64,000 nucleotides of DNA. Source: Candidatus Doudnabacteria bacterium (lineage in GTDB: Bacteria; Patescibacteriota; Doudnabacteria; UBA920). Both the position numbers and the translations under genes were made by a program. The notes beneath the pieces were generated by a model. That model saw only the letters and a list, made by a program, of their open reading frames with translations, searched no databases and was not told where the DNA came from. The stretch's first letter is position 1. Each line of letters begins with the position of its first letter. The DNA is taken from assembly GCA_963837465.1 (NCBI GenBank), contig CAWINB010000004.1, positions 650,853 through 714,852 on the forward strand. The letters run 5' to 3'. This document shows positions 3,271 through 64,000 of this stretch, one piece after another.

Positions 3271-3317
3271 CCCTAACCCCTAACCCCTAACCCCTAACCC
3301 CTAACCCCTAACCCCCT
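3271..3317. repeat. tandem heptamer repeat (CCCCTAA)x~6.5, telomere-like, preceded by hairpin GTTAGGG-TCCT-CCCTAAC
   Basis: Direct reading of the sequence. Lies in the 83-bp gap between prgI-like and virB4-like genes. Confidence 0.95.
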
Positions 3318-4004
3318 CTGATGAAACTAGAAATGCAAAAGAAAAATAAGGCGCCCGGGAAAACCACCCAGAGTTTTTTGCGCTTAAGCGAAATTAAAAA
3401 CGATACCGTGGTGGTGGACGACGGCACTTTGCGCGCCATTATTTCCGTTTCCAGCACCAATTTTGATTTAAAAAGCCAGGATGAGCAGAATTCCATCATC
3501 TTTAACTTCCAGCGTTTTTTAAACTCCCTGGATTTTTCCATCCAGATTTTAATGCAGAGCCGCAAAATGGAAGTCGGGAGCTATATTGAAAAACTCCACC
3601 GTTTGGCGGAAAAACAGACTAACGAACTGCTTCGGGTGCAGACGGCCGAATATATAGAGTTCATTAGCCGCCTTATTGAGAATGCCAGCATTATGAACAA
3701 AAATTTTTACATTATTGTTCCGCTTGGCGAAAGCATTTTTCCCAACGCCGCGGGTTTGTTTAGCCGGCTTTTGGGCAACGGGAAATCAAAGGAGATTAGC
3801 CAGAAAATAGAGAACTTTGAAAAGGCCAAGGAAAAATTGGACACCAGGGTGGTGGCGTTAATGTCCAATTTGTCGGGAATAGGCATCCGCGGCCAGCGGC
3901 TTAAAACCGAGGAAATTATCCAGCTCTATTACAACTCCTATAATTTTGAAGAAGCTCCGCTGGTGGATCCTGGGCAGCTTAAAGATATAAAAATCTCCGA
4001 ATAG

Positions 4005-6399: not shown

Positions 6400-9300
6400 T
6401 TGTCTGTCCGTGAATTATTTTTTATGGCGGAAGAAGATTCACAATCAAATATAGGCGTAGCCGATGGGCAAGAAGATGCTGTTAGGTCTGACAAACAACC
6501 AGCCGCGTCTAAAAAATTTATCCCATTGTCGGGTAAACCGCAAATTGTCAGATTGGGGGAAAGCTTTTTGGGCGGCCGGGTGTTAATTGTTAATGTTACA
6601 GTTGGCGGCGAGCCTCTTAATAATGGCATCAAGGTTTATAAAGATTCCGAGATTATTTTTACCGGGCGGGGTTTGGATAATTTAGATTTTTGGGAAGTCA
6701 GCCGGGAGGGGCGCGACTCTCTGCCTTTTACCCGTTTTAGAACAAAAAGTCCGTCCTTGGCTGTATTCAGCCCGCAAGACGCGCTTGGCGCTCTGGAAAA
6801 CGGCGAGAGTTTCGGTATTTCTTTTTTTTCCAGCAAGTACGGCGGGACGATGCGCACATTATCGGCGCTTTTTACTTACGAAACCGAGGAAGCGGACGAA
6901 GAAGCCGCCCGGAAGGCTAAAGCCGCGCGGGCGGCGGCGGAGGCGGCGCAGTCGGAGGGCGGAGGCGGAACTTTGGGTATTTCCCAGTTGATTGATGAAA
7001 GCATTGGCGGGGTGGCTAACGCGGTTGGGAGGGGGTTGCGGAGTTCGGCGAGGTCGGCGGTTTCCGGGACCGCAGGGGCTTACGCTGCCGGTTCTCAAAC
7101 TGTCAGCCAAAAATCAACCACGGAAAGTGCCGGAGGTGGAGGGTATGATGAGGAGACAGCCCAAGTCTCAACCGTAAACGTTCCTTCATCTACCATTGAA
7201 GCTTCTTCGGCGGGCACGCGGGTTGTAAGCCAGTCAGGAACTGTGGGCGGGTCACGCGGCGCGGAGATTACTTCTTCGGGTACGGTTTCAGGGTCGGGTG
7301 GCGGTACAATTTCTTCTTCGGGTACGGTTGAACCGCGAACTCGGGTAGGTGCAACTGCCCAGGTTAGTTCAGCGTCCGGCGGCGGACAAACTTTTGGCGG
7401 CGGGACTGTATCTGCCGGTGGTACGGCATCGGCTCAGGCATTTGTGGAAGCCAGGGTTTCGGGATCAGCTTCGGGACAAGCTTCCGGCGGCGGGCAAGTA
7501 TCGGCTTCTGTTTCAGGCGGGGGCGGAGTTTCATCCGGCGGCGGCGGAAATATTTCCGGACAGGCTTCGGTTCAAAGCGGCGGATCCCAAGCCGCATCGG
7601 CGCGGCCGGTTTCGCAAGGTCTCCAGGGAGGGGGAATATCGTCCGGGCGTCAACAGACAGCGCAGGCTCAGTCAGCCGGACAAAACGCCGGCCAGCAGGC
7701 ACAGACAGTGTCTCAAAATCAGGGCGGGCGGGCAGGATCAACAATTTCCGGCACAGCGCAAACAGCCGTTCCTTCTTTTTCATCAGGGACAAACTTAAAG
7801 ACACAAATAGGTGGCGCGGGCGCAACTTCTCCGGCTGTGCCTAAAAGCCGACCTTTGGCATCGGGAGCACCAGCCACGCCTTTGGGTAGTTTACCGCAAA
7901 ATTTTTCGGGTGCCTCGGGAACTTTTCAGCCCGGTTTAAATTTAGGCGCCAGCACACCCGTGGATGGCATCGCGGTAAACCCTCCCGCGGGCATGGAAGG
8001 CACTTTGAATAAGTTTTTTGAAAACCAGTCGGCTTTGGGCAGGTTAGATTTGGGGCCTGCCGAGAATCAAAATCATGAAATTCAGGGTCAGGAAAGTTCT
8101 TTGCCGGACGGGGAGAATGTAACAGAATCATCTGGATCTCCTGCCTCCGATGGCCAGCCGGAAATTTCAGGCTCCCCGGAAACCGAGCCGGATGTCGCGC
8201 CGCCTTTGTCCGAAGCGGGACTTCCGGGCGAAGGCGCGGGTGGCGAAGGTCAGGGTGGTCAGGAAGGCGCGGTCGATTCGGGGGATTCGGGGTCAGGAGC
8301 TCAATCAGGAAATTCGGAGCCGGGAGCGAAAGGGGGATTGAATGGTCAAACAGAAGGCGGCCAGGGAGGCCCGCCGGATAAAAATGCTCCGACCGGAACA
8401 AAGCCGCCGGGGCAAAATCCCGAAGCGACCGGGGCGCCTGACGCTGCCGTTCCGGGACAGCAGCCCGCCGCGGAGGGAGCCGCTCCGGATTCGGCCGAAG
8501 CAGACGCTTTAGCAGGACCTGAAGCAGACGGGGAAGCGGGAGCTGGCGCGGGGCCCGAGGGAGCCGCCGCGGCAGGGGCCGCGCTTTCCGGCGGCGGGCT
8601 TGATGCCGCCGCCGCGTTGGTCAACACGGAAGTAAATAGTCTTCTCACTGCCGCGGCTTTATGGGTCTGGGGATCGGGGATAGTCAGCTGCGGTTTTACC
8701 ATTGTGCTGGGGGCGCTAGTTGGGGATTTTCTCGTGCTGATGAAGAAGCGGTTGGCCAAAAGGGCTGTCAGCGCGCTTTCGGTAACCAGTTTAGGCGCTG
8801 GGATGAAACTGGCTTCATTTTCAAATGACCAACTGGCGGAAAAAATTAAGTTTAATCTGCCGGTTAAGGCCAATATCGCGGCGATGAACGCGGTAGTGGC
8901 AGTTATGATTTTTGGGGCAATATTTTTTTTCGGTGTGGTGTTATACGCCGGCTGTACCTGGCCGTTGGGCCAGTTCATCAGTTCGGCAACCAATTTTAAA
9001 GCCTCCATTATCGGCGGAATGGGTTATTCCAATGTTTGCCAGGATTTTTTATCGTTCCCCGCCGGACTCAGCGGCGCGGCGCAGGGAGCGACTACTGCCG
9101 GACCGGGTGCGCCATCTCCGAGTACTTCGTCTTCCAGGACTTGCAATGTTTTACCTTCCGGCAATGCCAGCGTGGCGCAATTATCTACTACCTGCTTTGG
9201 CGCTAACGCCTACACCGCCGCTGTTGTTGCGGCGCACGAAAGCGGCGGTACTCCGGGTATTGCCAGCGGTACGGATTATTGCCGTAATCCGGATGGTAGT

Positions 9301-18528: not shown

Positions 18529-18776
18529 TTGTTACAGGTTGGTATTTATTAAACTATAAACGGCCAATTTCGGTGAAATCAGTAATAATTATACGATTTA
18601 TCGCGAGTTTTTGTTTCAAAGATGATGAGTATGAAAACACTACCGTAATTTTACCTGTAAAACCAAAAACCGCCAAATTGACTGTAGCCGGTTTTTTGGC
18701 TAAAATAGTTAGGATAATCTTAGCGGTGATTCCTGTAGGGGCTGGCCTTGGCCGCCCGTATTAAGTTTGAACATAT

Positions 18777-18917: not shown

Positions 18918-19640
18918 TTAGTCCCTCGCCGCCGTCAAGCAAATCACTTTTGCCGCGCCGTTGCGTTTTAGGATTTTGGCGGCTTCCTGGAGGGTGGAGC
19001 CGGTGGTGGCGACATCGTCTACAAGGATAATATTTTTGCCGCGGACATCCGCTCCGGGTTTTAGCTTAAAGGCATCGCTGACATTTTTTAGGCGCTGCTC
19101 TTTTTTTAAATCTTTTTGCGTTTTCGTATGCTTACAGCGTACTAGTACGCTAGCGCACGCGATACCCAGTTCCCGGCTCAGGCTTCGGCATAAAATTTCC
19201 GCCTGGTTAAAGCCGCGCCAGCGTTCGCGGGATGGATGGAGCGGGACATAGGCTAATTCGTACGAATTAGCAGTCAGATGCGTATGGTCATTTTTAATTT
19301 TTTGCGCCACGGTTTTCCCAAAAATATTATAAACTTCCGATATGAATTTGTATTTTCCGGCGATTATTATTTTAGCGACTTTGTCATCGTGATAATCGTA
19401 AAAACTAATCAATCCGTCGGCTCCGTGAGGCGTTTGGCAGCCGGGATGTGTAAAGCCGAATATCGCCTGTTTTTGGCAGGCAATACAGCGCTGGCGCTCC
19501 AGCACCGTTAAAGATATTTTACATTCAGCGCAAATAAAATTTCCCTCACCGCCACAGCTCACACAGGAAATGGGGAATAAAGTGTCCAGGACGAAAGTTT
19601 TAATATCCAGCCAGAACGGTTTTATAAATGTTTGATACAT
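18918..19640 (-). CDS. comF: ComF family protein (phosphoribosyltransferase domain, competence)
   Basis: N-terminal Cys4 zinc ribbon (CVSCGGE...CAEC...CIAC) and a C-terminal PRTase motif ILVDDVATTGSTL. Confidence 0.75.
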   Translation of the reverse strand: MYQTFIKPFWLDIKTFVLDTLFPISCVSCGGEGNFICAECKISLTVLERQRCIACQKQAIFGFTHPGCQTPHGADGLISFYDYHDDKVAKIIIAGKYKFISEVYNIFGKTVAQKIKNDHTHLTANSYELAYVPLHPSRERWRGFNQAEILCRSLSRELGIACASVLVRCKHTKTQKDLKKEQRLKNVSDAFKLKPGADVRGKNIILVDDVATTGSTLQEAAKILKRNGAAKVICLTAARD

Positions 19641-23547: not shown

Positions 23548-24757
23548 ATACCGTTCGGAAATCCGTTGGTGAAATCAGATGTTCCTGTTAAGCTTAAGCG
23601 ATAAAACCAAGGTTTAACCAGTTAACTAAGAAAGGAATCTAGTCATGCCAAAAAAAACGTCGCCATGTTTGTCCACATTGCAGCAGTTTAAAAACAATTA
23701 AATTTGGTAAGGATGGCAAGAGTCATCGCTACCTCTGCCATTTTTGTAAGCGCACCTTTTCCATTTACCACGGCCAGGATTCTCACAACCTTTGGATAGA
23801 GCATATTGACGGCGTGGGCTTTAGACGCTTAGGCGATGAAAACACCCTGTCAGGGCCCCAGACCTACGCGCGCGTCATCACAGAGCTGGATCAGCTGCCA
23901 AAAAACGACTTTTTGACCAAAACCCTCTGTGATTTGGCCCACTGCCAGGGGATTTTAATCCTTGACGGCAAATACATCGCGGTTAAAGGCTTTGAGCGGA
24001 AGATTCCATTCCTGTTCGGCATTGATTACCTGACTCACGATATTTTACACGGAGAATTGTTCTTTTCTGAGGACGAAGCGGCTTTCTCCCAGTACTTTCA
24101 GAAACTAAAAGACCTGGGCTACAACCTTAAAATAGTTGTCGCCGATGACAGAGCAGGCATAAAACAGGCTCTAAACAAGGTCTTTCCCTACGCGCGGCTG
24201 CAGCTCTGCCATGTCCACTTCCTGGAAAACATCCGCGCTGTGCTTAGGGTTAAAACCGAGGAGCGCTACAGACACTTTTTTAATTCACTTAAGCTCCATG
24301 TGTTTACCGAAGGAGCGGATGAGGAAAAAATTGACGCCGGACTGGAGCATGTCTTAAGAAATCATGCCCAACACAGCCCCAAACTCCAGGATATTATCTG
24401 GGAAGTTAAGCGTAGACGCGAAGCCTTGTTTAATTACCTGAAAGTCAAAGACTGTCCCAACAACACCAACCTCATAGAACTTTTTAATTCCCACTTAAAC
24501 GGCCGCCTTAAAACCATCAAGGGTTTCCAGAGTTTTAAGTCGGCAAATCGCTGGCTTAACGCCTGGATGATTCGGCGCCGCAGCAAGACTTTTACCGATT
24601 GCGACAAAAAATTTAAATATTTAAACAAACACTGCTCCCTGGAATTTACCATTAAAAAACAGGCCCTGTGGCCTGAAACTTTAAAAACTTTAGGAATTAA
24701 CAAAATAAATTTTTTCGAAAAAAGCGATTACTAACAACGGATTCCCGAACGGTAACC
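23548..24757. mobile_element. IS1-family-like insertion sequence (about 1.2 kb) with imperfect terminal inverted repeats TACCGTTCGG(A/G)AATCCGTTG
   Basis: IRL 23548-23568 vs IRR 24735-24757 (19/20 match). Encodes one transposase with an InsA-like zinc ribbon and an InsB-like DDE domain. Confidence 0.65.
23645..24734 (+). CDS. IS1-family transposase (InsA-like Zn-ribbon fused to InsB-like DDE domain); frame broken in an A-run at 23650-23657
   Basis: Zinc ribbon CPHCSSLKTIKFGKDGKSHRYLCHFCKRTFS, cf. IS1 InsA ...[20 protein letters not shown]. DDE region ILDGKYIAVKG / IVVADDRAGIK / IELFNSHLNGRLKTIKGFQSF, cf. InsB MDEQWGYVGAK / WMTDGW / [22 protein letters not shown]. The ATG at 23645 is +1 out of frame with the body. 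The A-run is the only place they can be joined. Confidence 0.6.
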
Positions 24758-25931: not shown

Positions 25932-26303
25932 CTAATTGATTGTAGTTGAGCGAAGTTTTTTGATTAGCGCTAGTAGCATTTTTTGTACTTGCAGAAGTAA
26001 TGACTTAGCGATCAAATAATCAAAATTCGGATACAATTTTTCCATCAGTAATATTTGTGTTTCAAGTTCTGCCGTCGATCCAAAAGCTATGCCCAAAAAT
26101 TGAATGAATTCTTTGGTATGGTTCCTCGCGTGGCCTTCTGCTATGTTGGAAGGTATAGAGATGGCAGCTCTTTGTGTTTGTGAACAAAGGCCGTAAAGTT
26201 CGTGTTTAGGAAATTGGCGGGTAATTTTATATATTTCTAATACTAAATCATTAGATTTTTGCCAAACAATTAAGTCTTTGTAGCTTAAGATCTGGTTTTG
26301 CAT
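25932..26303 (-). CDS. four helix bundle protein (TIGR02436 / 23S rRNA IVS protein family), second copy
   Basis: Motifs DLIVWQKS...FPKHELYGLCSQTQRAAISIPSNIAEGHAR...GSTAELETQ, canonical for the family. Confidence 0.8.
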   Translation of the reverse strand: MQNQILSYKDLIVWQKSNDLVLEIYKITRQFPKHELYGLCSQTQRAAISIPSNIAEGHARNHTKEFIQFLGIAFGSTAELETQILLMEKLYPNFDYLIAKSLLLQVQKMLLALIKKLRSTTIN

Positions 26304-26307
26304 ACTA

Positions 26308-26343
26308 TTCCCTAATCTCTATTCCCTAGCCCCTACCATTAGA
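26308..26343. repeat. C-rich flank ATTCCCTAATCTCTATTCCCTAGCCCCTACCATTAG
   Basis: Shares the core AGGGGCTAGGG/CCCTAGCCCCT in inverted orientation with 25887-25923. Confidence 0.8.
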
Positions 26344-27016: not shown

Positions 27017-27017
27017 C

Positions 27018-27056
27018 GCTTTAGTTAACTAAAGCGCTTTAGTATGCTAAAGCGAC
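27018..27056. promoter_or_regulatory. two tandem palindromic operator-like sites, CGCTTTAGTTAACTAAAGCG and CTTTAGTATGCTAAAG
   Basis: Perfect dyads between the -10 and the start codon of a TrpR-like regulator gene. A related half-site GCTTTAGTGCACTAGC lies at about 27417-27436. Confidence 0.55.
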
Positions 27057-27065
27057 AACAATTAA

Positions 27066-27404
27066 ATGCTTATGAATAAATCCAACAAATGGGATAACAA
27101 AAAAACGGATGCTTTGGTAAAAACTGTTTTGGCTTTGAAGACCAAAAAAGAAGCCAAAAAGTTTTTGCGCGACCTGTTAACCGAAGACGAAATCCTGGAA
27201 TTCGGCAACCGCTGGCAAGCCGCGCAAATGTTAAGCAAAAAATTGTCCTACACTACCATATCCGGCAAAACCGGCCTGTCCAGCGCCACCATAGCCCGCA
27301 TTTCCAATTGGTTAAAAAACGGCCGCGGCGGATACAAATTAATGCTCAAACGCCTAGCTTTACATCATCACAACTCTCTTCCTGTTGGGAAAGGGTTGCG
27401 TTGA
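27066..27404 (+). CDS. YerC/YecD (TrpR-like) family DNA-binding protein
   Basis: LLTEDEILEFGNRWQAAQMLSKKLSYTTISGKTGLSSATIARISNWLKNG matches the family consensus. Confidence 0.7.
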   Translation: MLMNKSNKWDNKKTDALVKTVLALKTKKEAKKFLRDLLTEDEILEFGNRWQAAQMLSKKLSYTTISGKTGLSSATIARISNWLKNGRGGYKLMLKRLALHHHNSLPVGKGLR

Positions 27405-27575
27405 TAATATTTCGTAAGCTTTAGTGCACTAGCTGCAAGTCCGCCATAGCGCTTTGGCGAAGGCGGATACGCTAGCGTAAAAGGACTTGAAAATATCAAC
27501 TTAACCCGTTCCCAAGAGGAGCGGGTTTTTTGTTTGTCCCAAAACGAGCAAAATTTACAATCAAAAGGATGGAAT

Positions 27576-28193
27576 ATGAGTGATTTTTACCATTGTAGAA
27601 GGGCCCCGTACTTGGAAGAGATTGTTGAGGTTGAAGAAGCGGAACCAAAAAGGATGGTACGTAGATTGCAGATTGGCGTAATGGGAAGCGCTGCTGACCT
27701 CGGATATTCCGAAGCAGTAGCAAAATTGGCCGAAGATATCGGCCGCGAAGTGGCTTTGGCCGGATGCACTTTAGTCTTTGGCGCGGAGAAAGATTGTGAT
27801 TCGCTTTCTACCGCGGCCGGACGAGGCGCTCGAAGTGTCGGCGGCCTGACTGTCGGCGTGACTTATGGCAAGGGGCTGCAAGTTCACGACGATGCTGACG
27901 TTATTATCGCCACCGGCATGGAGCGCGGCGGCGGACGTGAGTTTGTGCTGGCGATTTCCTGCGATGCCATTATCGCCATTTCCGGAGGCAGCGGCACCTG
28001 CAACGAAATCGTTGTGGCTTACCAGGCCAGCATTCCGGTTATCGGAATTGTCGGCTGCGGCGGCTGGAGCGAAGAAATGGCTGGCCGGGCGTTTGATGCT
28101 CGGCGGCAGCACCTAGCGGTTAAGCCAGCTCGCACGGCCAAGGAAGCTGTAATGTTGGCGGTAGAAGCTGCACGTACAGGAGGGGAGCACTGA
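27576..28193 (+). CDS. TIGR00725/LOG-like (SLOG superfamily) Rossmann-fold protein
   Basis: GVMGSAADLGY...GCTLVFGAEKD...ISGGSGTCNEIVVAYQASIPVIGIVGCGGW matches the LOG/TIGR00725 pattern. SD AAAAGGATGG is present. The ORF track extends to 27534. Confidence 0.55.
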   Translation: MSDFYHCRRAPYLEEIVEVEEAEPKRMVRRLQIGVMGSAADLGYSEAVAKLAEDIGREVALAGCTLVFGAEKDCDSLSTAAGRGARSVGGLTVGVTYGKGLQVHDDADVIIATGMERGGGREFVLAISCDAIIAISGGSGTCNEIVVAYQASIPVIGIVGCGGWSEEMAGRAFDARRQHLAVKPARTAKEAVMLAVEAARTGGEH

Positions 28194-28194
28194 C

Positions 28195-28923
28195 ATGAAG
28201 AAGCTCAAGCTGGCCGTTTGCAACGGAACCATGGAACAGCAGATGGTGAATTATTTGGAACAAGCCGGTCTGAGGTTTCAAAAAGAGCCGCGGCGGTTTC
28301 GTTACGTCATCGGGCATGACTTGGTTTCCGAAGTTGTGTTCATGCGCCCGCAGGACATGCCGCGCGAAGTGGCGCATGGCAATTACGACATGGGGATTTG
28401 TGGCTTTGATTTTTTTCTGGAATATGGATCCAGCATTGATCACAATTCCGATAAACAAACTCCGGGCTGTGGAATGCATGGTTCATTCGATACCTCCAAA
28501 GCTGGTGCCCACAGCACGAAGGTGGTGCTCATTGCCCACAAAGACGATCCGGCCTCTTCCAAAGCGGATGTGCCGAAGGGAGCTAAGATCCTTTCTGAGT
28601 ACCCGTGGCTAACCCGGGAAGTGCTATCGCCAAATAAAGTCGAAGGTAGTGACCTGTGGACTTACGACTTAAATCGCAATGCGCATCCTGGAGTGGTTTA
28701 TTCCTGCGGTGCGACCGAAGCCCATATTCCGTGGAATTATCGTTTTGGGGTTTGCCTGGTCGCTTCAGGCCTGACGCTGGCTGCCAACAATCTCAAAATC
28801 GTCGACGTGCTTTGTGAAACCTGCCCGGTTATGTTACATGCGGGGCAGGATAAACAAAAAGAGCAGCGGCAGCTGCGGCATTTGTTCGCCGAAGCTGGGT
28901 TGCTGCGATTGGGGTTGTTATGA
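28195..28923 (+). CDS. HisG-like ATP phosphoribosyltransferase (short form, 242 aa)
   Basis: RPQDMPREVAHGNYDMGICGFDFFLE and SCGATEAHIPWN...SGLTLAANNLKIV resemble HisG catalytic signatures. There is an AGGAGG SD and a 1-nt gap from the upstream gene. Confidence 0.55.
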   Translation: MKKLKLAVCNGTMEQQMVNYLEQAGLRFQKEPRRFRYVIGHDLVSEVVFMRPQDMPREVAHGNYDMGICGFDFFLEYGSSIDHNSDKQTPGCGMHGSFDTSKAGAHSTKVVLIAHKDDPASSKADVPKGAKILSEYPWLTREVLSPNKVEGSDLWTYDLNRNAHPGVVYSCGATEAHIPWNYRFGVCLVASGLTLAANNLKIVDVLCETCPVMLHAGQDKQKEQRQLRHLFAEAGLLRLGLL

Positions 28924-30068
28924 AATACATCGTCGCGTACCCGCCAGTAGATTTTTCTATCCCTTTTTCGGAACTAAAGCCGGAAGATATTGACATCTAC
29001 TTTCACTACACAAACCGCATTGGCGCCGCTACCTGCAAGGCCGCGTGCGCCCATTGTTACTTTCGCAACAAGCCCGAGTTCCATATTCCGGTGGATAAGG
29101 CCCTAGCAATTACCCGTTCGCTTCGGACCCAAGGCTACAACATCGGGATGGCGCCGGCGGACAGCTTTGGCGATGAGGCGTTGTTGGCCGGGGACGCCGG
29201 TTCGGCTTTCCGCCTTAAGCCCATTGGTACGTCGGCTTGGAGCAGTGGAGTGCCGTTGTTTATCGCTGGCTGGCAAGAGCGGCTAAACCGCGCTTGGGAG
29301 ATTGGCTTTCGGTCAATCATAATCACCGCTCACGAAGCGGCCGGAACCCCTGTCCCAATAAAAGGTGTGACCAGGGCCCCGGTAATTTTAGGAGCCGTAA
29401 GCAACATCAAAACCTGGAATAGGATGAACCCAAACAAGCAATTCGCCATTTCCACCACTTTTACCATCCGCGCCGACAACTGCAAGTTGGAGTTGATGCG
29501 TCAAATGGTGCAGTGGGGCGTAGGAGAAGGGATTGATCTTGTTCGGTTCAACTGCTTTGCGAATTTTCAGGGTTTGTCTGAACATCGTCAGTATGAGATG
29601 TCGCGACGGGATATTACCAAGTTTTTCGGCTACCTTGCCTTGTTGCAGGAAGAGTTTTTGGAAACTCCGACTGCGCTGGGTATTTCGGAAGACTGGGGCG
29701 ACGCGGGAATAGAACAAATTTACCCGTACTTGCCGCCGGTCTGGCAAACTCGTACGGCCGGTTGGTGCCGCGCCGGGTATCGGCTATTTGCGATGATTGA
29801 AGTCCGGGGCCAAATTGTATTAACCGGATGCGTGGACAAATGGGAGCCTGAGCTTGGCCTGCTGCATCAAGTCGGCGAAGACAACTACCGCATTCAATGG
29901 CGGTATGATCAAATCGAAACGCTGCGGCAGGCGGTGCTTCAAAACCGAGTCTACGCCTGCTGGGGAGGCGTGGGTTGCGGTCGCGGTAAATCTGCCGGTT
30001 TTGCCACCGGCCAAAAAACAGAACAGCAAATCTTTGGCGGAAATAGTCCGCTTGAGATTTTAGCCTAA
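28920..30068 (+). CDS. radical SAM enzyme of unknown function
   Basis: CKAACAHCY equals CX3CX2C at residues 39-46. Extra C-terminal Cys cluster CWGGVGCG. ATGA start/stop overlap with the upstream gene. Confidence 0.6.
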   Translation: MKYIVAYPPVDFSIPFSELKPEDIDIYFHYTNRIGAATCKAACAHCYFRNKPEFHIPVDKALAITRSLRTQGYNIGMAPADSFGDEALLAGDAGSAFRLKPIGTSAWSSGVPLFIAGWQERLNRAWEIGFRSIIITAHEAAGTPVPIKGVTRAPVILGAVSNIKTWNRMNPNKQFAISTTFTIRADNCKLELMRQMVQWGVGEGIDLVRFNCFANFQGLSEHRQYEMSRRDITKFFGYLALLQEEFLETPTALGISEDWGDAGIEQIYPYLPPVWQTRTAGWCRAGYRLFAMIEVRGQIVLTGCVDKWEPELGLLHQVGEDNYRIQWRYDQIETLRQAVLQNRVYACWGGVGCGRGKSAGFATGQKTEQQIFGGNSPLEILA

Positions 30069-34710: not shown

Positions 34711-34786
34711 GTGTCATCCCGGAATTTTTACAGCGTCCGACGTAGCTTTAGCGAAGTCGGAAGGGCTGTTAAAATATCCGGGATCC
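34711..34786. repeat. copy D of the dispersed palindromic element family (GTCATCCCGG...GCGTCCGACG...CCGGGAT)
   Basis: Shares words with 53857-53937, 59562-59652 and 62539-62606. Confidence 0.5.
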
Positions 34787-35089: not shown

Positions 35090-36730
35090 ATGCCTAAAGA
35101 ATTTCCATCATCAACCCAATATCAACCCGTCATTGGCTTTGAAATCCACGTCGAACTTGCCACCAAGAGCAAGATGTTCGGGCCGGCGGCCAATAATCCG
35201 GATGAGAACAGGCCGAATGTAAATATAGACGAGATTGTCACGGCTGAGCCGGGGACTTTACCCGTGGCCAACAAAGAAGCCATACGTTTAGCCGCTATGG
35301 TTGGTTTAGCTTTGAATTGTACGATTGATGAATGGAGCAAGTTTGACCGCAAACATTATTTTTATCCGGACTTGCCAAAGGGCTACCAAATTTCGCAGTA
35401 TGACCAGCCGATATCTAAAGACGGATATTTGGATATTGAGCTTCCTGTTAGTAACGAGTCTGCCTTCGCCAAGGCTACGGCGGATAAATTCGCAGTCTCA
35501 TCGGGCAACGCCTACAAAACATCCAAACTCGGAACTGTAATTAAGCGCGTGGGTATAACACGTGCTCATTTAGAAGAAGACGCGGGAAAAAATATCCATC
35601 CCGAGGGTTTGCCGTATTCGCTTGTGGATTACAACCGCGCCGGCTGCGCTCTTTTGGAAATTGTCACGGAACCGGACATAGAAAGCGGCGAAGAGGCAAA
35701 AGTTTTTTTAACCGAACTCCGCAATATTATCCGCTACCTGGGCGCCAGTGATTGTGATATGGAAAAGGGGACTATGCGCGTGGAGCCGAATATTTCGGTG
35801 CGGATGCCCGGCGAGACCGGTTTGCCGAAATATAAAGTTGAAGTAAAAAATATCAACAGCTTTAAATTTGCCCAAAGCGCGATTGATTATGAAATCGCGC
35901 GGCAGACGGAAATTTTAAAGGAAGGCAAAACGCCTAAGCAGGTGACTATGGGCTGGAACGAAAAAGACAGCATGACGGTTGAGCAAAGAAGCAAGGAAGA
36001 AGCCAACGACTACCGCTATTTTCCGGAGCCGGATTTGCCGGTACTGCAGTTTACAAAAGAATATCTCGATACCTTGCGGGCCGAAATGCCCGAGTTGCCG
36101 GCGCAAAAACGCGCGCGCTTTTTGGAAGAATTTGGCTTGCCCGCGGCCGATGTGGAAAATTTAATCAACTGGAAGGAGCTGGCTAATTATTTTGAGGAAG
36201 TTGTTTCGGAAATTGACGAATGGATAAATCAGGACGCAGGGGCTGGGCTTGCCCGCCCGCTTTTCGACGATGGCGGGCAGCTAAAGCCAGCCCCCACAGA
36301 TCGTCAAATACTAATCAAACAAGCAGCCAACTGGTGCCTGCAGGATTTTTCCGCGGCCTTGAACCAAAAACTAATCAATCCCGCAGATTCCGAAGTAACC
36401 CCGGAAAATTTTGCCGAACTGTTAAAATTAATCCAGCAACAAAAAATTTCCGTCAGCGCGGCAAAAACCGTATTTAAAGTAATGTTTGAAAAAGGCGGCG
36501 AACCTCTGTCTATTGTTTCGGATTTAGGCCTTGAGCAGACATCCGATAGCGATGCCATTGCGTCAGCCATAGACAAAGTCCTTGCCGCCAACCCAAAAGC
36601 CGCCGCTGACTACAAAGGGGGCCTTGAAAAATCTTTCGGCTTTTTGGTGGGACAAACAATGAAAGAGCTAAAAGGCAAAGGCAACCCGCAGGTAATAAAC
36701 GAGTTATTAAGGAAAAAATTATCAGCCTAA
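35090..36730 (+). CDS. gatB: Asp/Glu-tRNA amidotransferase subunit B
   Basis: YQPVIGFEIHVELATKSKMF and the GatB/YqeY C-terminal domain. Confidence 0.9.
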   Translation: MPKEFPSSTQYQPVIGFEIHVELATKSKMFGPAANNPDENRPNVNIDEIVTAEPGTLPVANKEAIRLAAMVGLALNCTIDEWSKFDRKHYFYPDLPKGYQISQYDQPISKDGYLDIELPVSNESAFAKATADKFAVSSGNAYKTSKLGTVIKRVGITRAHLEEDAGKNIHPEGLPYSLVDYNRAGCALLEIVTEPDIESGEEAKVFLTELRNIIRYLGASDCDMEKGTMRVEPNISVRMPGETGLPKYKVEVKNINSFKFAQSAIDYEIARQTEILKEGKTPKQVTMGWNEKDSMTVEQRSKEEANDYRYFPEPDLPVLQFTKEYLDTLRAEMPELPAQKRARFLEEFGLPAADVENLINWKELANYFEEVVSEIDEWINQDAGAGLARPLFDDGGQLKPAPTDRQILIKQAANWCLQDFSAALNQKLINPADSEVTPENFAELLKLIQQQKISVSAAKTVFKVMFEKGGEPLSIVSDLGLEQTSDSDAIASAIDKVLAANPKAAADYKGGLEKSFGFLVGQTMKELKGKGNPQVINELLRKKLSA

Positions 36731-36743
36731 TATTTTTATGTAA

Positions 36744-36787
36744 ATTCGTATGTTTTAGCGTACTAGTACGTTAGCTATTACGAAATC
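36744..36787. repeat. palindromic element (core AGCGTACTAGTACG), copy 2
   Basis: ATTCGTATGTTTTAGCGTACTAGTACGTTAGCTATTACGAAAT, related to 58514-58559 and 19122-19165. Confidence 0.7.
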
Positions 36788-36901
36788 CGAAAATTAATAT
36801 AATTAGGACTTACGCCTTTGACAATATTACCTAAGTTATTGTTTAATCAGCTTTTAAAAAAGCCATAATTTAGACCCCAAAGGCGTAAGTCCTAATAATA
36901 A

Positions 36902-37297: not shown

Positions 37298-38224
37298 TTA
37301 CGTTTCAGATAGTTTTGCCACCCAGACAATATCCTTATTCTTTTTCCACCACGTCATCTGCCGTTTGGAGTAGTGCTTAATGGCAAAAGAAAGCTGGGTG
37401 AGCATTTCTTCACGCGACAGTTTTTTTTGCAGGAATAGCGCTATATATTTGTATTCCAGGCCGAATGATTCCAGCCGTTTCCAGGACAGGCCGAGGCTAT
37501 GGAGTTTTCGGACTTCCTTTACTACTCCCGCCTTAAAGCGCAGCTTTAGCCTGACGTCTATTTTTTCATAAAGCTCATCTTGCTCCGGATACAAGCCAAG
37601 CCAAAGAGCGTCATAGCTGACTGCTGACTGCTGATTACTTTTGACAGGCACAGGCTTGCCGGTTGTTATAACAATTTCCAGCGCGCGGATGAGGCGGCGT
37701 TTGTTGTGGCGGTCGATGGTTGTTGCGCGGCTTGGATCCAGTTTTTTAAGTTGCCGGTACAAATCATCGGCCGATTTTTTTTCCAGTTTCGCCCGCAATT
37801 TCAAGTTCGGCTTAACATCTGGAATTTTTTGATCGTAAACAACGGCATCAATCCAGTGCGCCGTGCCGCCGCAGAGGATGGGCAGTTTGCCGCGGCTTAA
37901 AATATCGGCGATGGCTTTTTTGGCGTCTTGCTGAAAAAGCGCGGCGGAATATTGCCTGTTCGGATTTATAAAGTCTATGCAATGGTGCGCGATTTTTTTA
38001 TAAACAAACTGTTTGCATAAATGACGGCCGTCATTTATAGTAACACTCCATTTGCCGGGGACTTTGCCGGTGCCCAGGTCAAGGCCGCGGTAAATTTGCC
38101 GGCTGTCGCAGGAAATTATCTCGCCGTTGAATTTTTTTGCCAGTTTGACGGCAAGTTCCGATTTACCGGACGATGTAGGGCCGACGACGATAATTATCTT
38201 CGGGAGGTTATTTTTTGCCATCAT
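37298..38224 (-). CDS. miaA: tRNA dimethylallyltransferase MiaA
   Basis: P-loop GPTSSGKS and DSRQIYRGLDLGTGK. Confidence 0.85.
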   Translation of the reverse strand: MMAKNNLPKIIIVVGPTSSGKSELAVKLAKKFNGEIISCDSRQIYRGLDLGTGKVPGKWSVTINDGRHLCKQFVYKKIAHHCIDFINPNRQYSAALFQQDAKKAIADILSRGKLPILCGGTAHWIDAVVYDQKIPDVKPNLKLRAKLEKKSADDLYRQLKKLDPSRATTIDRHNKRRLIRALEIVITTGKPVPVKSNQQSAVSYDALWLGLYPEQDELYEKIDVRLKLRFKAGVVKEVRKLHSLGLSWKRLESFGLEYKYIALFLQKKLSREEMLTQLSFAIKHYSKRQMTWWKKNKDIVWVAKLSET

Positions 38225-56172: not shown

Positions 56173-56310
56173 GTAAAATGCTATAATCAACTCAGAGATG
56201 GCGGGATTTTTATCAGCATTTATCCCTAGAGGCTGGCTTTGGCCGCCGCCATCAGAGACACAGGCGGCCAAGGCCAGCCTCCGCACGGACAATCCAGCTT
56301 GTCTTAACCA

Positions 56311-57269: not shown

Positions 57270-57592
57270 AACTCCTTAAAATAAAAACATCCCAAACTAC
57301 CAATGTTTGAGGAACTCGGAAGTAAGAAGGTGGGGAGCTTTCTTAAAAAGTTGGTAATATATTACATCATTTTATGCTTATATTGCTAACTGAGGCAAAA
57401 ACCTTTAAATAAGCCGAGTTTGGTCATAATTCTACATTTTTATTGGCGATTTTGGGTGTTTCTCTTGACATCTTTTAAAAACCCTTGATTTTATTAGCTT
57501 TTTTGGGTAATATGTAATTGTTAACTAATAAATTAGCCTACGGATTCCGTCATCTTTAAAGATTGGGGGAAAAGTGGGCAGGAGACAAAAAA

Positions 57593-58513: not shown

Positions 58514-58559
58514 GGTTTCGTGTGCGCTAGCGTACTAGTACGCTAGCGCACACGAAACC
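58514..58559. repeat. 46-bp perfect palindrome GGTTTCGTGTGCGCTAGCGTAC|TA|GTACGCTAGCGCACACGAAACC (copy 3 of the palindromic element)
   Basis: Direct reading. Contains NheI- and SpeI-type hexamers. Related copies at 36744-36787 and 19122-19165. Confidence 0.9.
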
Positions 58560-62968: not shown

Positions 62969-64000
62969 ATGGAAAAAATGGATATTGCCGGATTAAAAGT
63001 CAATGCCGTTACCAAACGGGAATTTCTGGCCCAATGCCTGGCGCGGGTAAAAGCGGGAGAGAAAACTTTTGTCATCACGCCTTATTCCGAGTTTTTGTAC
63101 CGTGCTTTTAAGAACCCATCGCTTTTGGAAATTTTCAACGCCGCGGATTTTTCCCTGGCCGACGGCATCGGAATTTTTTGGGCCAAAAAATATTTGGGCT
63201 TGCCTTTAACCGCCAAAAGTTTTTACGGAAAAATTTTGCAGAGTTTATGGCAAATGTTTTATAGTTTGGCCGCGATAATTTTTTATCCCGCCTGGATAAA
63301 ATTGGCATTGCCGGAAAAAATCGTAGGCGCGGACTTGGTATGGGATTTGGCAAGACTTGCGGCCAACAACAACCTGTCAATTTATCTTTTGGGCGGGTTC
63401 GGCGACACGGCAAAAATAGCCGCCCATCAACTAACCGCTGTTACTAAAAATGACGGCCGTCATTTAAGCGAACGGTTAAAAATCGCGGGATGGTCAAATA
63501 AAAATCCGGATGACCTCTCGGTTATGAAGGACATTAACAAATCATCAGCGGATATTTTGTTTGTGGCTTACGGCCCGGTAAAACAGGAGAAATGGATAGC
63601 GGAAAATTTAAAAAACCTTAACGTTAAACTGGCCATAGGCGTGGGCGGCAGTTTTGATTACATCGCGGGAGTAAAATCCGCGCCGCCGAAAATCATCAGA
63701 TATTCCGGCCTGGAATGGTTATGGCGGCTGGTTACCCAACCCTACCGTTTTAAAAGAATCGTGAACGCGACTTTTGGGTTGATGACTTATCTTACCCGCT
63801 ACAAAGTTTTTATGAGCTATCCTTATCGTAAAAACGTTGTCAGTATTATTTTAAACTCAAAAAATGAAGTGCTGATATGCCGCCGCAATCCCAACAATCC
63901 CCAAGACATACTCTACGGTTTTCAAAAAAATGACATGGTTAATTATTGGCAGTTTACCCAAGGCGGGATAGATGATGGAGAAACCATTGAACAAACGGCT
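62969..64000 (+). CDS. WecB/TagA/CpsF-family glycosyltransferase fused to a C-terminal NUDIX hydrolase domain (3' end beyond the window)
   Basis: Absent from the ORF track because the frame is open to the window end. DGIGIFWA and DILFVAYGPVKQEKW match TagA. The Nudix box begins GGIDDGETIEQ. Confidence 0.6.
   Translation, partial: MEKMDIAGLKVNAVTKREFLAQCLARVKAGEKTFVITPYSEFLYRAFKNPSLLEIFNAADFSLADGIGIFWAKKYLGLPLTAKSFYGKILQSLWQMFYSLAAIIFYPAWIKLALPEKIVGADLVWDLARLAANNNLSIYLLGGFGDTAKIAAHQLTAVTKNDGRHLSERLKIAGWSNKNPDDLSVMKDINKSSADILFVAYGPVKQEKWIAENLKNLNVKLAIGVGGSFDYIAGVKSAPPKIIRYSGLEWLWRLVTQPYRFKRIVNATFGLMTYLTRYKVFMSYPYRKNVVSIILNSKNEVLICRRNPNNPQDILYGFQKNDMVNYWQFTQGGIDDGETIEQTA

Follow-up and report, generated by a model that had tools for sequence, protein, structure and literature searches.

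In the TrpR family of regulators, operators have been described by the TrpR motif TGTAcTnGTnnACnAgTACA with its half-site GNACT and by the HisR motif cacTTTAnnnnnnTAAAgtg (PMC9413887), and template switching within quasi-palindromes is an established mutational route to perfect palindromes (PMC7202029). Both bear on a palindrome centred on CTAG in a 64,000-nt stretch of a Candidatus Doudnabacteria genome (assembly GCA_963837465.1, contig CAWINB010000004.1, positions 650,853 to 714,852 of the forward strand), which we call the window. Three copies of the element, in the coding sequence of comF and past the ends of gatB and yjbQ, together with a degraded fourth past a yerC/trpR-like gene, are a small family of one CTAG-centred palindrome anchored in ordinary comF coding sequence. 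It is secure that the copy in comF belongs to the gene's own coding sequence and is under selection, the in-frame mobile-element reading being wrong for comF, and also that the family is present at other loci in related genomes. We inspected 64 kb of the 868-kb contig of the window, which is part of a small genome, and ~20 kb per relative (the related loci are cited by number, such as L012); the homologues of ComF, MltG and YerC of the window all came from the Patescibacteria (Doudnabacteria-like) group.

The copies are named A to D. Copy A (19120-19166, minus strand) lies inside comF (18918-19640, minus strand), which encodes a ComFC-family protein with a double zinc ribbon and a phosphoribosyltransferase domain (PF00156, PF18912). 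Its codons GGT ATC GCG TGC GCT AGC GTA CTA GTA CGC TGT AAG CAT ACG AAA AC are translated as G I A C A S V L V R C K H T K T, and they contain a 16-nt perfect palindrome at 19136-19151. Copy B (36743-36788) begins 14 nt past the stop codon of gatB, in a spacer on which gatB, running rightward, and a small ORF plus miaA, running leftward, converge; it is a decayed palindrome, 73% self-complementary, and its exact match with the other copies is limited to 14-15 nt. Copy C (58514-58559), between yjbQ (UPF0047) and mltG/YceG, is a perfect 46-nt palindrome that starts 39 nt past the yjbQ stop and ends 26 nt ahead of the mltG ORF start, being followed by cgttttag. Copy D (27410-27485, plus strand) starts 5 nt past the stop of the yerC/trpR-like gene and consists of TTTCGTAAGCTTTAGTGCACTAGCTGCAAG, a mini-hairpin at 27440-27467 and TACGCTAGCGTAAAAGGA, with an intrinsic terminator at 27505-27533 downstream. 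This degenerate copy was detected by nhmmer with the other three (~27409-27432 plus 27464-27479, E = 0.04), and its homology to the family was confirmed by comparison with relatives.

An earlier note on this DNA had described three near-identical copies with a shared exact stretch of at least 21 nt, of which the one past yjbQ was said to be a perfect 46-bp palindrome, the one past gatB an imperfect one and the one in comF a copy that leaves the reading frame unbroken. The observation was confirmed, the longest exact stretch being that of the comF and yjbQ copies. The 16-mer AGCGTACTAGTACGCT, allowing at most one mismatch, was found at three sites in the window (19136, 36757 and 58529) against 0.10 expected, a count that was reached in 0 of 100 shuffles. 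Copies A and C have 23 exact nt in common (AGCGTACTAGTACGCTAGCGCAC), and their flanks can be aligned as well (TTTCGTRTGC on one side, GCAC(G/A)CGA(T/A)ACC on the other); copy A reads ...GIACASVLVRCKHTKT... on the minus strand. The 26-nt core given in the title of that note is intact in copy C and in no other copy. As a separate observation, two arms of 16-19 nt, AGGACTTACGCCTTTG and CAAAGGCGTAAGTCCT, make up a perfect inverted repeat just downstream of copy B (36808-36826 and 36877-36895) that encloses ~50 nt, with promoter-like hexamers overlapping its left arm.

The earlier note had also offered a mobile palindrome that sits in-frame in genes, and this is where the comF copy departs from what had been proposed. 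In an alignment of 24 ComF orthologues (53-74% identity), not a single gap was present at residues 156-174, the site of copy A, and the encoded C-A-S-V-L-V-R-C-K-H-T-K-T is the ComF family's own L-x-R...T..Q motif, in which L166, R168, T172 and Q175 are invariant. An in-frame insertion in comF is thereby refuted. The similarity of the copies in their flanks beyond the core, and the small in-frame hairpin elements that this genome does carry in gatB, would suit a palindrome resembling the Rickettsia palindromic elements or a miniature inverted-repeat transposable element that had inserted in comF and in two spacers. Nevertheless, ComF has no extra residues relative to 23 orthologues, the sequence is ancestral to the whole subclade, target-site duplications are lacking, there are only 3-4 copies in 64 kb, and scans of genome collections placed the 19-mer AGCGTACTAGTACGYTAGC elsewhere only in another comF and at unrelated chance sites. 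The collection genomes, among which the window's genome is not included, gave one chance match in a high-GC gene for an FAD protein, and the five matches in the metagenome scan comprised one unrelated high-GC upstream site three times, the same FAD gene and another comF. We therefore regard insertion as scarcely credible.

The orthologous DNA was then compared for six lineages (the window, L001, L007, L010, L011 and L012), of which L007 came from a nucleotide search and is thus biased, while the other four orthologues had been picked by protein sequence. The codons (G/T)TA CTA GTA CG(C/A) TGT AA(A/G) are common to all six, with adjacent codons varying freely. Among the 52 invariant codon columns with at least four-fold degeneracy, only four are identical across the six lineages, and the core supplies two of them, its neighbouring CTA and GTA. 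The codons that follow are similarly uniform (CGC in 5/6, TGT in 6/6, AAA in 5/6 and, two codons beyond, ACG in 5/6). No Leu codon is rarer than CTA and no Val codon rarer than GTA: codon usage in the window genome is 4% of Leu for CTA, 15% of Val for GTA and 27% of Cys for TGT, and the probability of GTA CTA GTA CGC given the residues VLVR is 4e-4 per lineage. Thus the central ~17 nt, GTACTAGTACGCTGTAA, are constant at synonymous positions within this Patescibacteria subclade as far as the compared sequences go, and, as they are kept despite the rarest codons, selection acts on the nucleotides themselves. The comF of L001 retains TACTAGTACG with a broken stem, which means that what is conserved is the sequence, beyond pairing alone; the hairpin of the comF copy is in any case weak (z = -0.6). 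The comF of L014 is without the motif. Reading both strands by eye, we recognised no acceptable -10 element for an internal promoter in comF. The earlier note had expected ComF orthologues either to lack the residues or to hold them without the palindrome at the nucleotide level; they hold the same residues and the same nucleotides GTACTAGTACGCTGTAA too, so neither outcome was obtained.

Outside comF, the family core recurs at non-coding sites of related genomes. Directly past the stop codon of the yerC-like gene, L012 has TTAGCGTACTAGTACGCTAG, and L011 has arms of the L012 type split by a ~30-nt insert. At the same place L015 carries the variant GCACTAGTGC / GCTTTAATGCACTAGTGCAGTAATGC, in which two symmetric positions are changed on both arms; in its GCACT/AGTGC only the N of GNACT differs, on both halves. 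In L014 the gatB 3' spacer holds TGTACTAGCGTACTAGTACACTAGTACA, a palindrome with three CTAG. No CTAG core was found past the yerC-like gene in L014, L016 and L019, and in L001 the region beside LemA lacked a yerC-like gene and contained just a scaffold gap in secA. The yjbQ-mltG spacer of L017, which comes from the same metagenome as L001, and the spacer ahead of mltG in L018 each contain an ordinary terminator and no palindrome; copy C is therefore specific to the lineage of the window.

Several features point to the direction in which the sequence moved. Copy C matches comF of the window genome at 39/47 positions and five other comF genes at 30-34/47, and both of its arms are images of the upstream arm of comF (21/23). 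The comF flanks TCGCGTGC (I/L-A-C) and ACGAAAAC (T-K-T), which are native codons present in L010, are common to copies C, B and D. Copy D of the window carries the flank TTTCGTAAGC (ACGAAA), whereas copy D of the relatives is without it. The match between copy C and comF, the native nature of the flanks and the flank gained by copy D indicate that comF, or copies derived from it, supplied sequence to the other sites of the window. Judged from these alignments, the intergenic copies of the window probably derive from its own comF by short-patch copying. Of the options in the earlier note, a gene-conversion tract is hence supported as the origin of the intergenic copies, with comF as the donor. 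The copies may have been made from comF by short-patch gene conversion or by template switching during replication, and the copied patches may then have been rendered symmetric by quasi-palindrome correction, a step that we infer; they would have settled at gene 3' ends, where a hairpin is tolerated or useful. Placed in the comF frame, the symmetric sequence of copy C would give a TAG stop directly after the Arg codon, which explains why only copies that lie outside a reading frame can become perfect.

Copying of this kind need not imply any function of the copies. Something that concerns comF alone, for example a translational pause at rare codons or a feature of the mRNA, could account for the conserved motif, with copies B, C and D as functionless patches left by ectopic conversion or template switching at a palindrome. 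The minor codons GTA, CTA and TGT are clustered at the comF site, copy C is perfect, so probably young, and absent from relatives, copy B is decaying, and the mutational route itself is well established (PMC7202029). Such debris is not expected to be retained independently at several non-coding loci, yet L011 and L012 keep the core past the yerC-like gene, L015 keeps the compensated variant there, and L014, whose comF lacks the motif, keeps the core past gatB. We accordingly think it improbable that the copies are a neutral by-product.

We tentatively favour, as a possibility of real weight rather than as the probable answer, that the element is a site for a sequence-specific protein, of the TrpR-operator type, that has its anchor in comF and reached gene ends through short-patch conversion, after which it was made symmetric. 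What selection preserves would in that case be a site recognised by a dimeric DNA-binding protein with sequence specificity. In the core, GTACT/AGTAC, two GNACT/AGTNC half-sites abut, and the CTAG tetramers are phased 8 bp apart. Across the ~200 kb of the window plus seven related loci, the arrangement CTAG-N4-CTAG is confined to copy A, copy C (twice), L011, L012 and L014 (twice). CTAG is eight-fold depleted in the window genome (29 observed against 248 expected). The L014 element agrees with the TrpR motif at 15/16 positions, twice, in the 8-bp register. The trp operator of Escherichia coli (upstream of trpL, L013) shows the same CTAG phasing, and ACTAGTACGC is identical to part of it. We note separately that in E. 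coli NZ_CP148323.1 (L013) an 8-bp tandem duplication, CTAGTTAA, in the trp operator results in three CTAG in 8-bp phase instead of two.

A number of observations weigh against a TrpR-type protein site. Agreement of the window copies with the TrpR 20-mer consensus is limited to 12/16 positions, and a search of the window with this consensus at up to 3 mismatches missed them, its sole match being an unrelated site at 57513. The locations are not obvious promoter regions: copy A is intragenic, copy B is in a convergent spacer and copy D is ahead of a terminator; copy C lies downstream of one weak promoter-like match. A perfect palindrome of 46 nt far exceeds the length that a protein site needs. 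The extended lower stem of the copy D hairpin differs in sequence between genomes, and L014 and L019 have an unrelated G+C hairpin at the yerC-like 3' site; both would fit a structural RNA role. Finally, the CTAG palindrome occurs with both types of recognition helix in the YerC-like protein, described below, and does not track them. Among the functions proposed in the earlier note, recognition by a DNA-binding protein is still the best supported, the element being a candidate site for one.

The gene ahead of copy D (27066-27404, plus strand) encodes a TrpR-family (YerC/HisR-like) regulator (PF01371, E = 3e-22), whose homologues are named YerC/YecD. As the only TrpR-fold protein in view, it was a candidate binder. 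Between a promoter-like TTGACA-17-TATAAT and its start codon are two tandem 20-bp palindromes, CGCTTTAGTTAACTAAAGCG and CGCTTTAGTATGCTAAAGCG (27017-27054), which have the form CGCTTTAG-N4-CTAAAGCG, fit the HisR motif and are distinct from the CTAG palindrome; they are probably auto-operators of the yerC-like gene. We compared the recognition helix and the upstream palindromes across the window, L011, L012, L014, L015, L016 and L019. The helix GLS(SA/ST/TT)TIARIS goes with GCTTTAG-N4-CTAAAGC upstream in four genomes, and GLSPRTIARIS goes with GCTATAC-N4-GTATAGC in three. The YerC-like protein was consequently downgraded as the binder of the CTAG site, its helix covarying with its own upstream palindromes instead. 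The paired change of helix and operator looks like a clean natural switch of specificity in the TrpR family, as seen in these seven loci. Downstream of the yerC-like gene, genes for a SLOG/LOG-like (LDcluster4) protein and HisG are found in the window (27534-30068), and relatives (L015 10470-11537; the P0164 locus) also have PRA-CH (HisI) there, sometimes fused to SLOG. The SLOG and HisG block is a fragment of the histidine pathway coupled to a LOG-like enzyme, in organisms that are not expected to make histidine.

The positions of copies B, C and D, at 14, 39 and 5 nt past stop codons, invite a different explanation in which they are hairpins of the kind known from repetitive extragenic palindromic (REP) sequences. 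These would act in the single strand as a terminator, an mRNA 3' stabiliser or a processing site; the copies would be alike through exchange among hairpin sites or through an enzyme acting in trans, and comF would be a source of sequence with no shared function. Copies B, C and D are extragenic at gene 3' ends, as this would have it, whereas copy A is coding sequence. Where L017 and L018 have canonical terminators, the window has copy C with a short T run behind it. The hairpins show high stability (z = -7 for copy C and -4 to -7 for the copy D regions), and L012 and L015 retain the lower stem of copy D by means of differing sequences. Like REP sequences, the element is distributed patchily among orthologous sites, and its density of ~1 per 16 kb is inside the REP range. 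L019 has a Y1 transposase flanked by REP-like hairpins of its own, which differ from the CTAG palindrome. The terminator function proposed in the earlier note is reasonable for copy C given the terminators of the relatives, but a terminator scan called neither B nor C: the tail of copy C, cgttttag, has 4 T, and copy B has no T run. No Y1 transposase, the family to which the REP-associated tyrosine transposases (RAYT) belong, was detected among 58 window ORFs scanned against Pfam, and Rfam gave only three tRNAs above gathering scores in the window and nothing significant in 27350-27700. Above all, hairpins of this sort leave unexplained the nucleotide-level selection in comF, where the hairpin is weak and is broken in L001 with the sequence kept, as well as the 8-bp phasing of CTAG in independently shaped elements of a genome that avoids CTAG. 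We see gene-end hairpins as the main rival to a protein site, possible albeit rather unlikely when taken singly; that the element is one or the other of these two, rather than a jumping element, is probable.

A role linked to competence was also considered because the anchor lies inside a competence gene. The element could be a DNA-uptake or self-recognition sequence, or the 3'-UTR copies could be antisense in trans to comF mRNA. In Neisseria and Haemophilus, uptake sequences are present within genes and, in the form of inverted pairs, in terminators. Each of the symmetric copies carries 26-31 nt complementary to comF, and one arm of copy C is complementary to the comF codons for G-I-A-C-A-S-V-L-V-R at 29/31 positions. 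Against this, the density (3 core matches in 64 kb, ~1 per 16 kb) compares with ~1 per kb for known uptake sequences, L014 has the element and no comF site, and the copies are locked in very stable hairpins of their own. A competence-linked signal is thus very unlikely. Even less probable in our judgement is the target of a restriction-modification system or methyltransferase, through GCTAGC, ACTAGT, GTAC or CTAG; a restriction-modification protein had been among the options of the earlier note. The core is indeed composed of short palindromic sites of the restriction type, and CTAG is strongly avoided genome-wide; nevertheless, restriction pressure removes sites and would not fix one at synonymous positions of comF, nor does it offer a reason for similarity over 45 nt, and the window ORFs that were compared with Pfam included no restriction-modification gene.

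It is attractive to speculate, though we consider it a long shot, that the clade keeps a palindromic cis-site of 16-17 nt in comF and at a few loci of one syntenic block as the target of a sequence-specific system or of a network involving comF mRNA. If this were true, a TrpR-fold or another dimeric protein would act on chromosome organisation or on the control of read-through, rather than on promoters; alternatively, the network would rest on base pairing between the 3'-UTR copies and comF mRNA. Both versions would make a coding sequence the recurrent template for new regulatory or terminator palindromes. Very little is known of gene regulation in candidate-phyla-radiation bacteria, for which genetics in culture is impossible, and a comF motif shared with a few non-coding sites is a concrete and cheap target for study; it would also exemplify a coding sequence as the donor of gene-end palindromes. 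A mis-annotation is also averted, as the comF copy is no in-frame insertion of the Rickettsia type, while two such insertions are found in the nearby gatB.

The GatB protein of the window has two in-frame inserts that are absent from GatB of L015 and L016. Insert 1 (35447-35542, codons ~120-151) adds 29 aa, SNESAFAKATADKFAV... (SNESAFAKATADKFAVSSGNAYKTSKLGT), and contains a copy of the mini-hairpin CCGCCTTCGCCAAGGCTWCGGCGGA, with its core at 35457-35484. The mini-hairpin is also present in the window at 34736-34759, 27440-27467 and 665-687, and in L010, L011, L014, L015 and L018, the L014 copy being flanked by the direct repeat cgctgatt. In the window and L011 it interrupts copy D beside the central CTAG. 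It seems to be a mobile element, a small hairpin for which insertion in frame is tolerable and the loop of another hairpin a favoured landing place. For the yerC-like 3' hairpin, an RNA expansion segment had been considered as the nature of the apical insertion, which was rejected as the insertion is a copy of this widespread element. Insert 2 (36239-36294, codons ~384-402) adds 18 aa, AGLARPLFDDGGQLKPAP, as a G+C-rich palindrome, GGGGCTGGGCTTGCCCGCC...GGCGGGCAGCTAAAGCCAGCCCC, with a fold of -36 kcal/mol; relatives of it occur at 56231-56281 (including 56231/56263; intergenic, past rplA) and at 18740-18756. It is these gatB inserts, rather than the comF site, that are the counterparts of the in-frame palindromes of Rickettsia.

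Other repeats and mobile genes are present in the window. The palindrome AAATGACGGCCGTCATTT was found inside miaA (38009-38045) and at 63438-63466, that is, in coding sequence and at another locus. An ORF for a Mutator-family transposase (23814-24734) lies between recX and a gene for an M48 peptidase; in the same place L019 carries the Y1 (IS200/RAYT-type) transposase mentioned above (7075-7563), flanked by three GCAGGCCnnnGGCCTGC hairpins. Mobile DNA appears to have landed repeatedly in the recX-M48 spacer. Two ORFs (2357-2725 and 25932-26303) match the family of 23S rRNA intervening-sequence proteins (PF05635), with CCCTAAC heptamer repeats near them at 3271-3319 and 26310-26330.

Compared with described systems, the element shares with parS, matS, Noc and SlmA sites a palindromic core of ~16 bp and a clustering of few sites within tens of kb. 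Intragenic sites for chromosome organisation such as these can lie in genes and be conserved at synonymous positions. The palindrome is, however, unrelated in sequence to parS, for which tGTTNCACGTGAAACa had no match in the window at up to 3 mismatches, and GC skew showed no switch within the window. The palindromic elements of Rickettsia likewise extend over an ORF with the frame unbroken (PMC1458961, PMC1166351), but the host protein gains residues from them, and ComF gains none from copy A. With REP sequences, their paired form (REPINs) and RAYT (PMC3116915, PMC3337134), the family has in common short hairpin-forming palindromes at gene 3' ends, lineage-specific and patchy in distribution, at few copies per tens of kb; it differs in that conserved coding sequence makes up one of its window members, that the window showed no RAYT gene and that the window family has no paired REPIN arrangement. 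Quasi-palindrome correction (PMC7202029, PMC6357072) accounts both for the passage from an imperfect comF-derived repeat to the perfect 46-nt copy C and for the impossibility of perfection inside the reading frame, although it is a mutational mechanism rather than a function and does not by itself account for the patch reaching other loci. TrpR-family operators differ in their placement, the window sites being intragenic or at gene 3' ends and outside promoters, and in the length of the palindromes, which in the window extend to 46 nt. They resemble the family in having inverted GNACT half-sites and CTAG in an 8-bp register, with dimers binding in tandem at TrpR operators, and a TrpR-family gene resides in the same syntenic block as the window elements.

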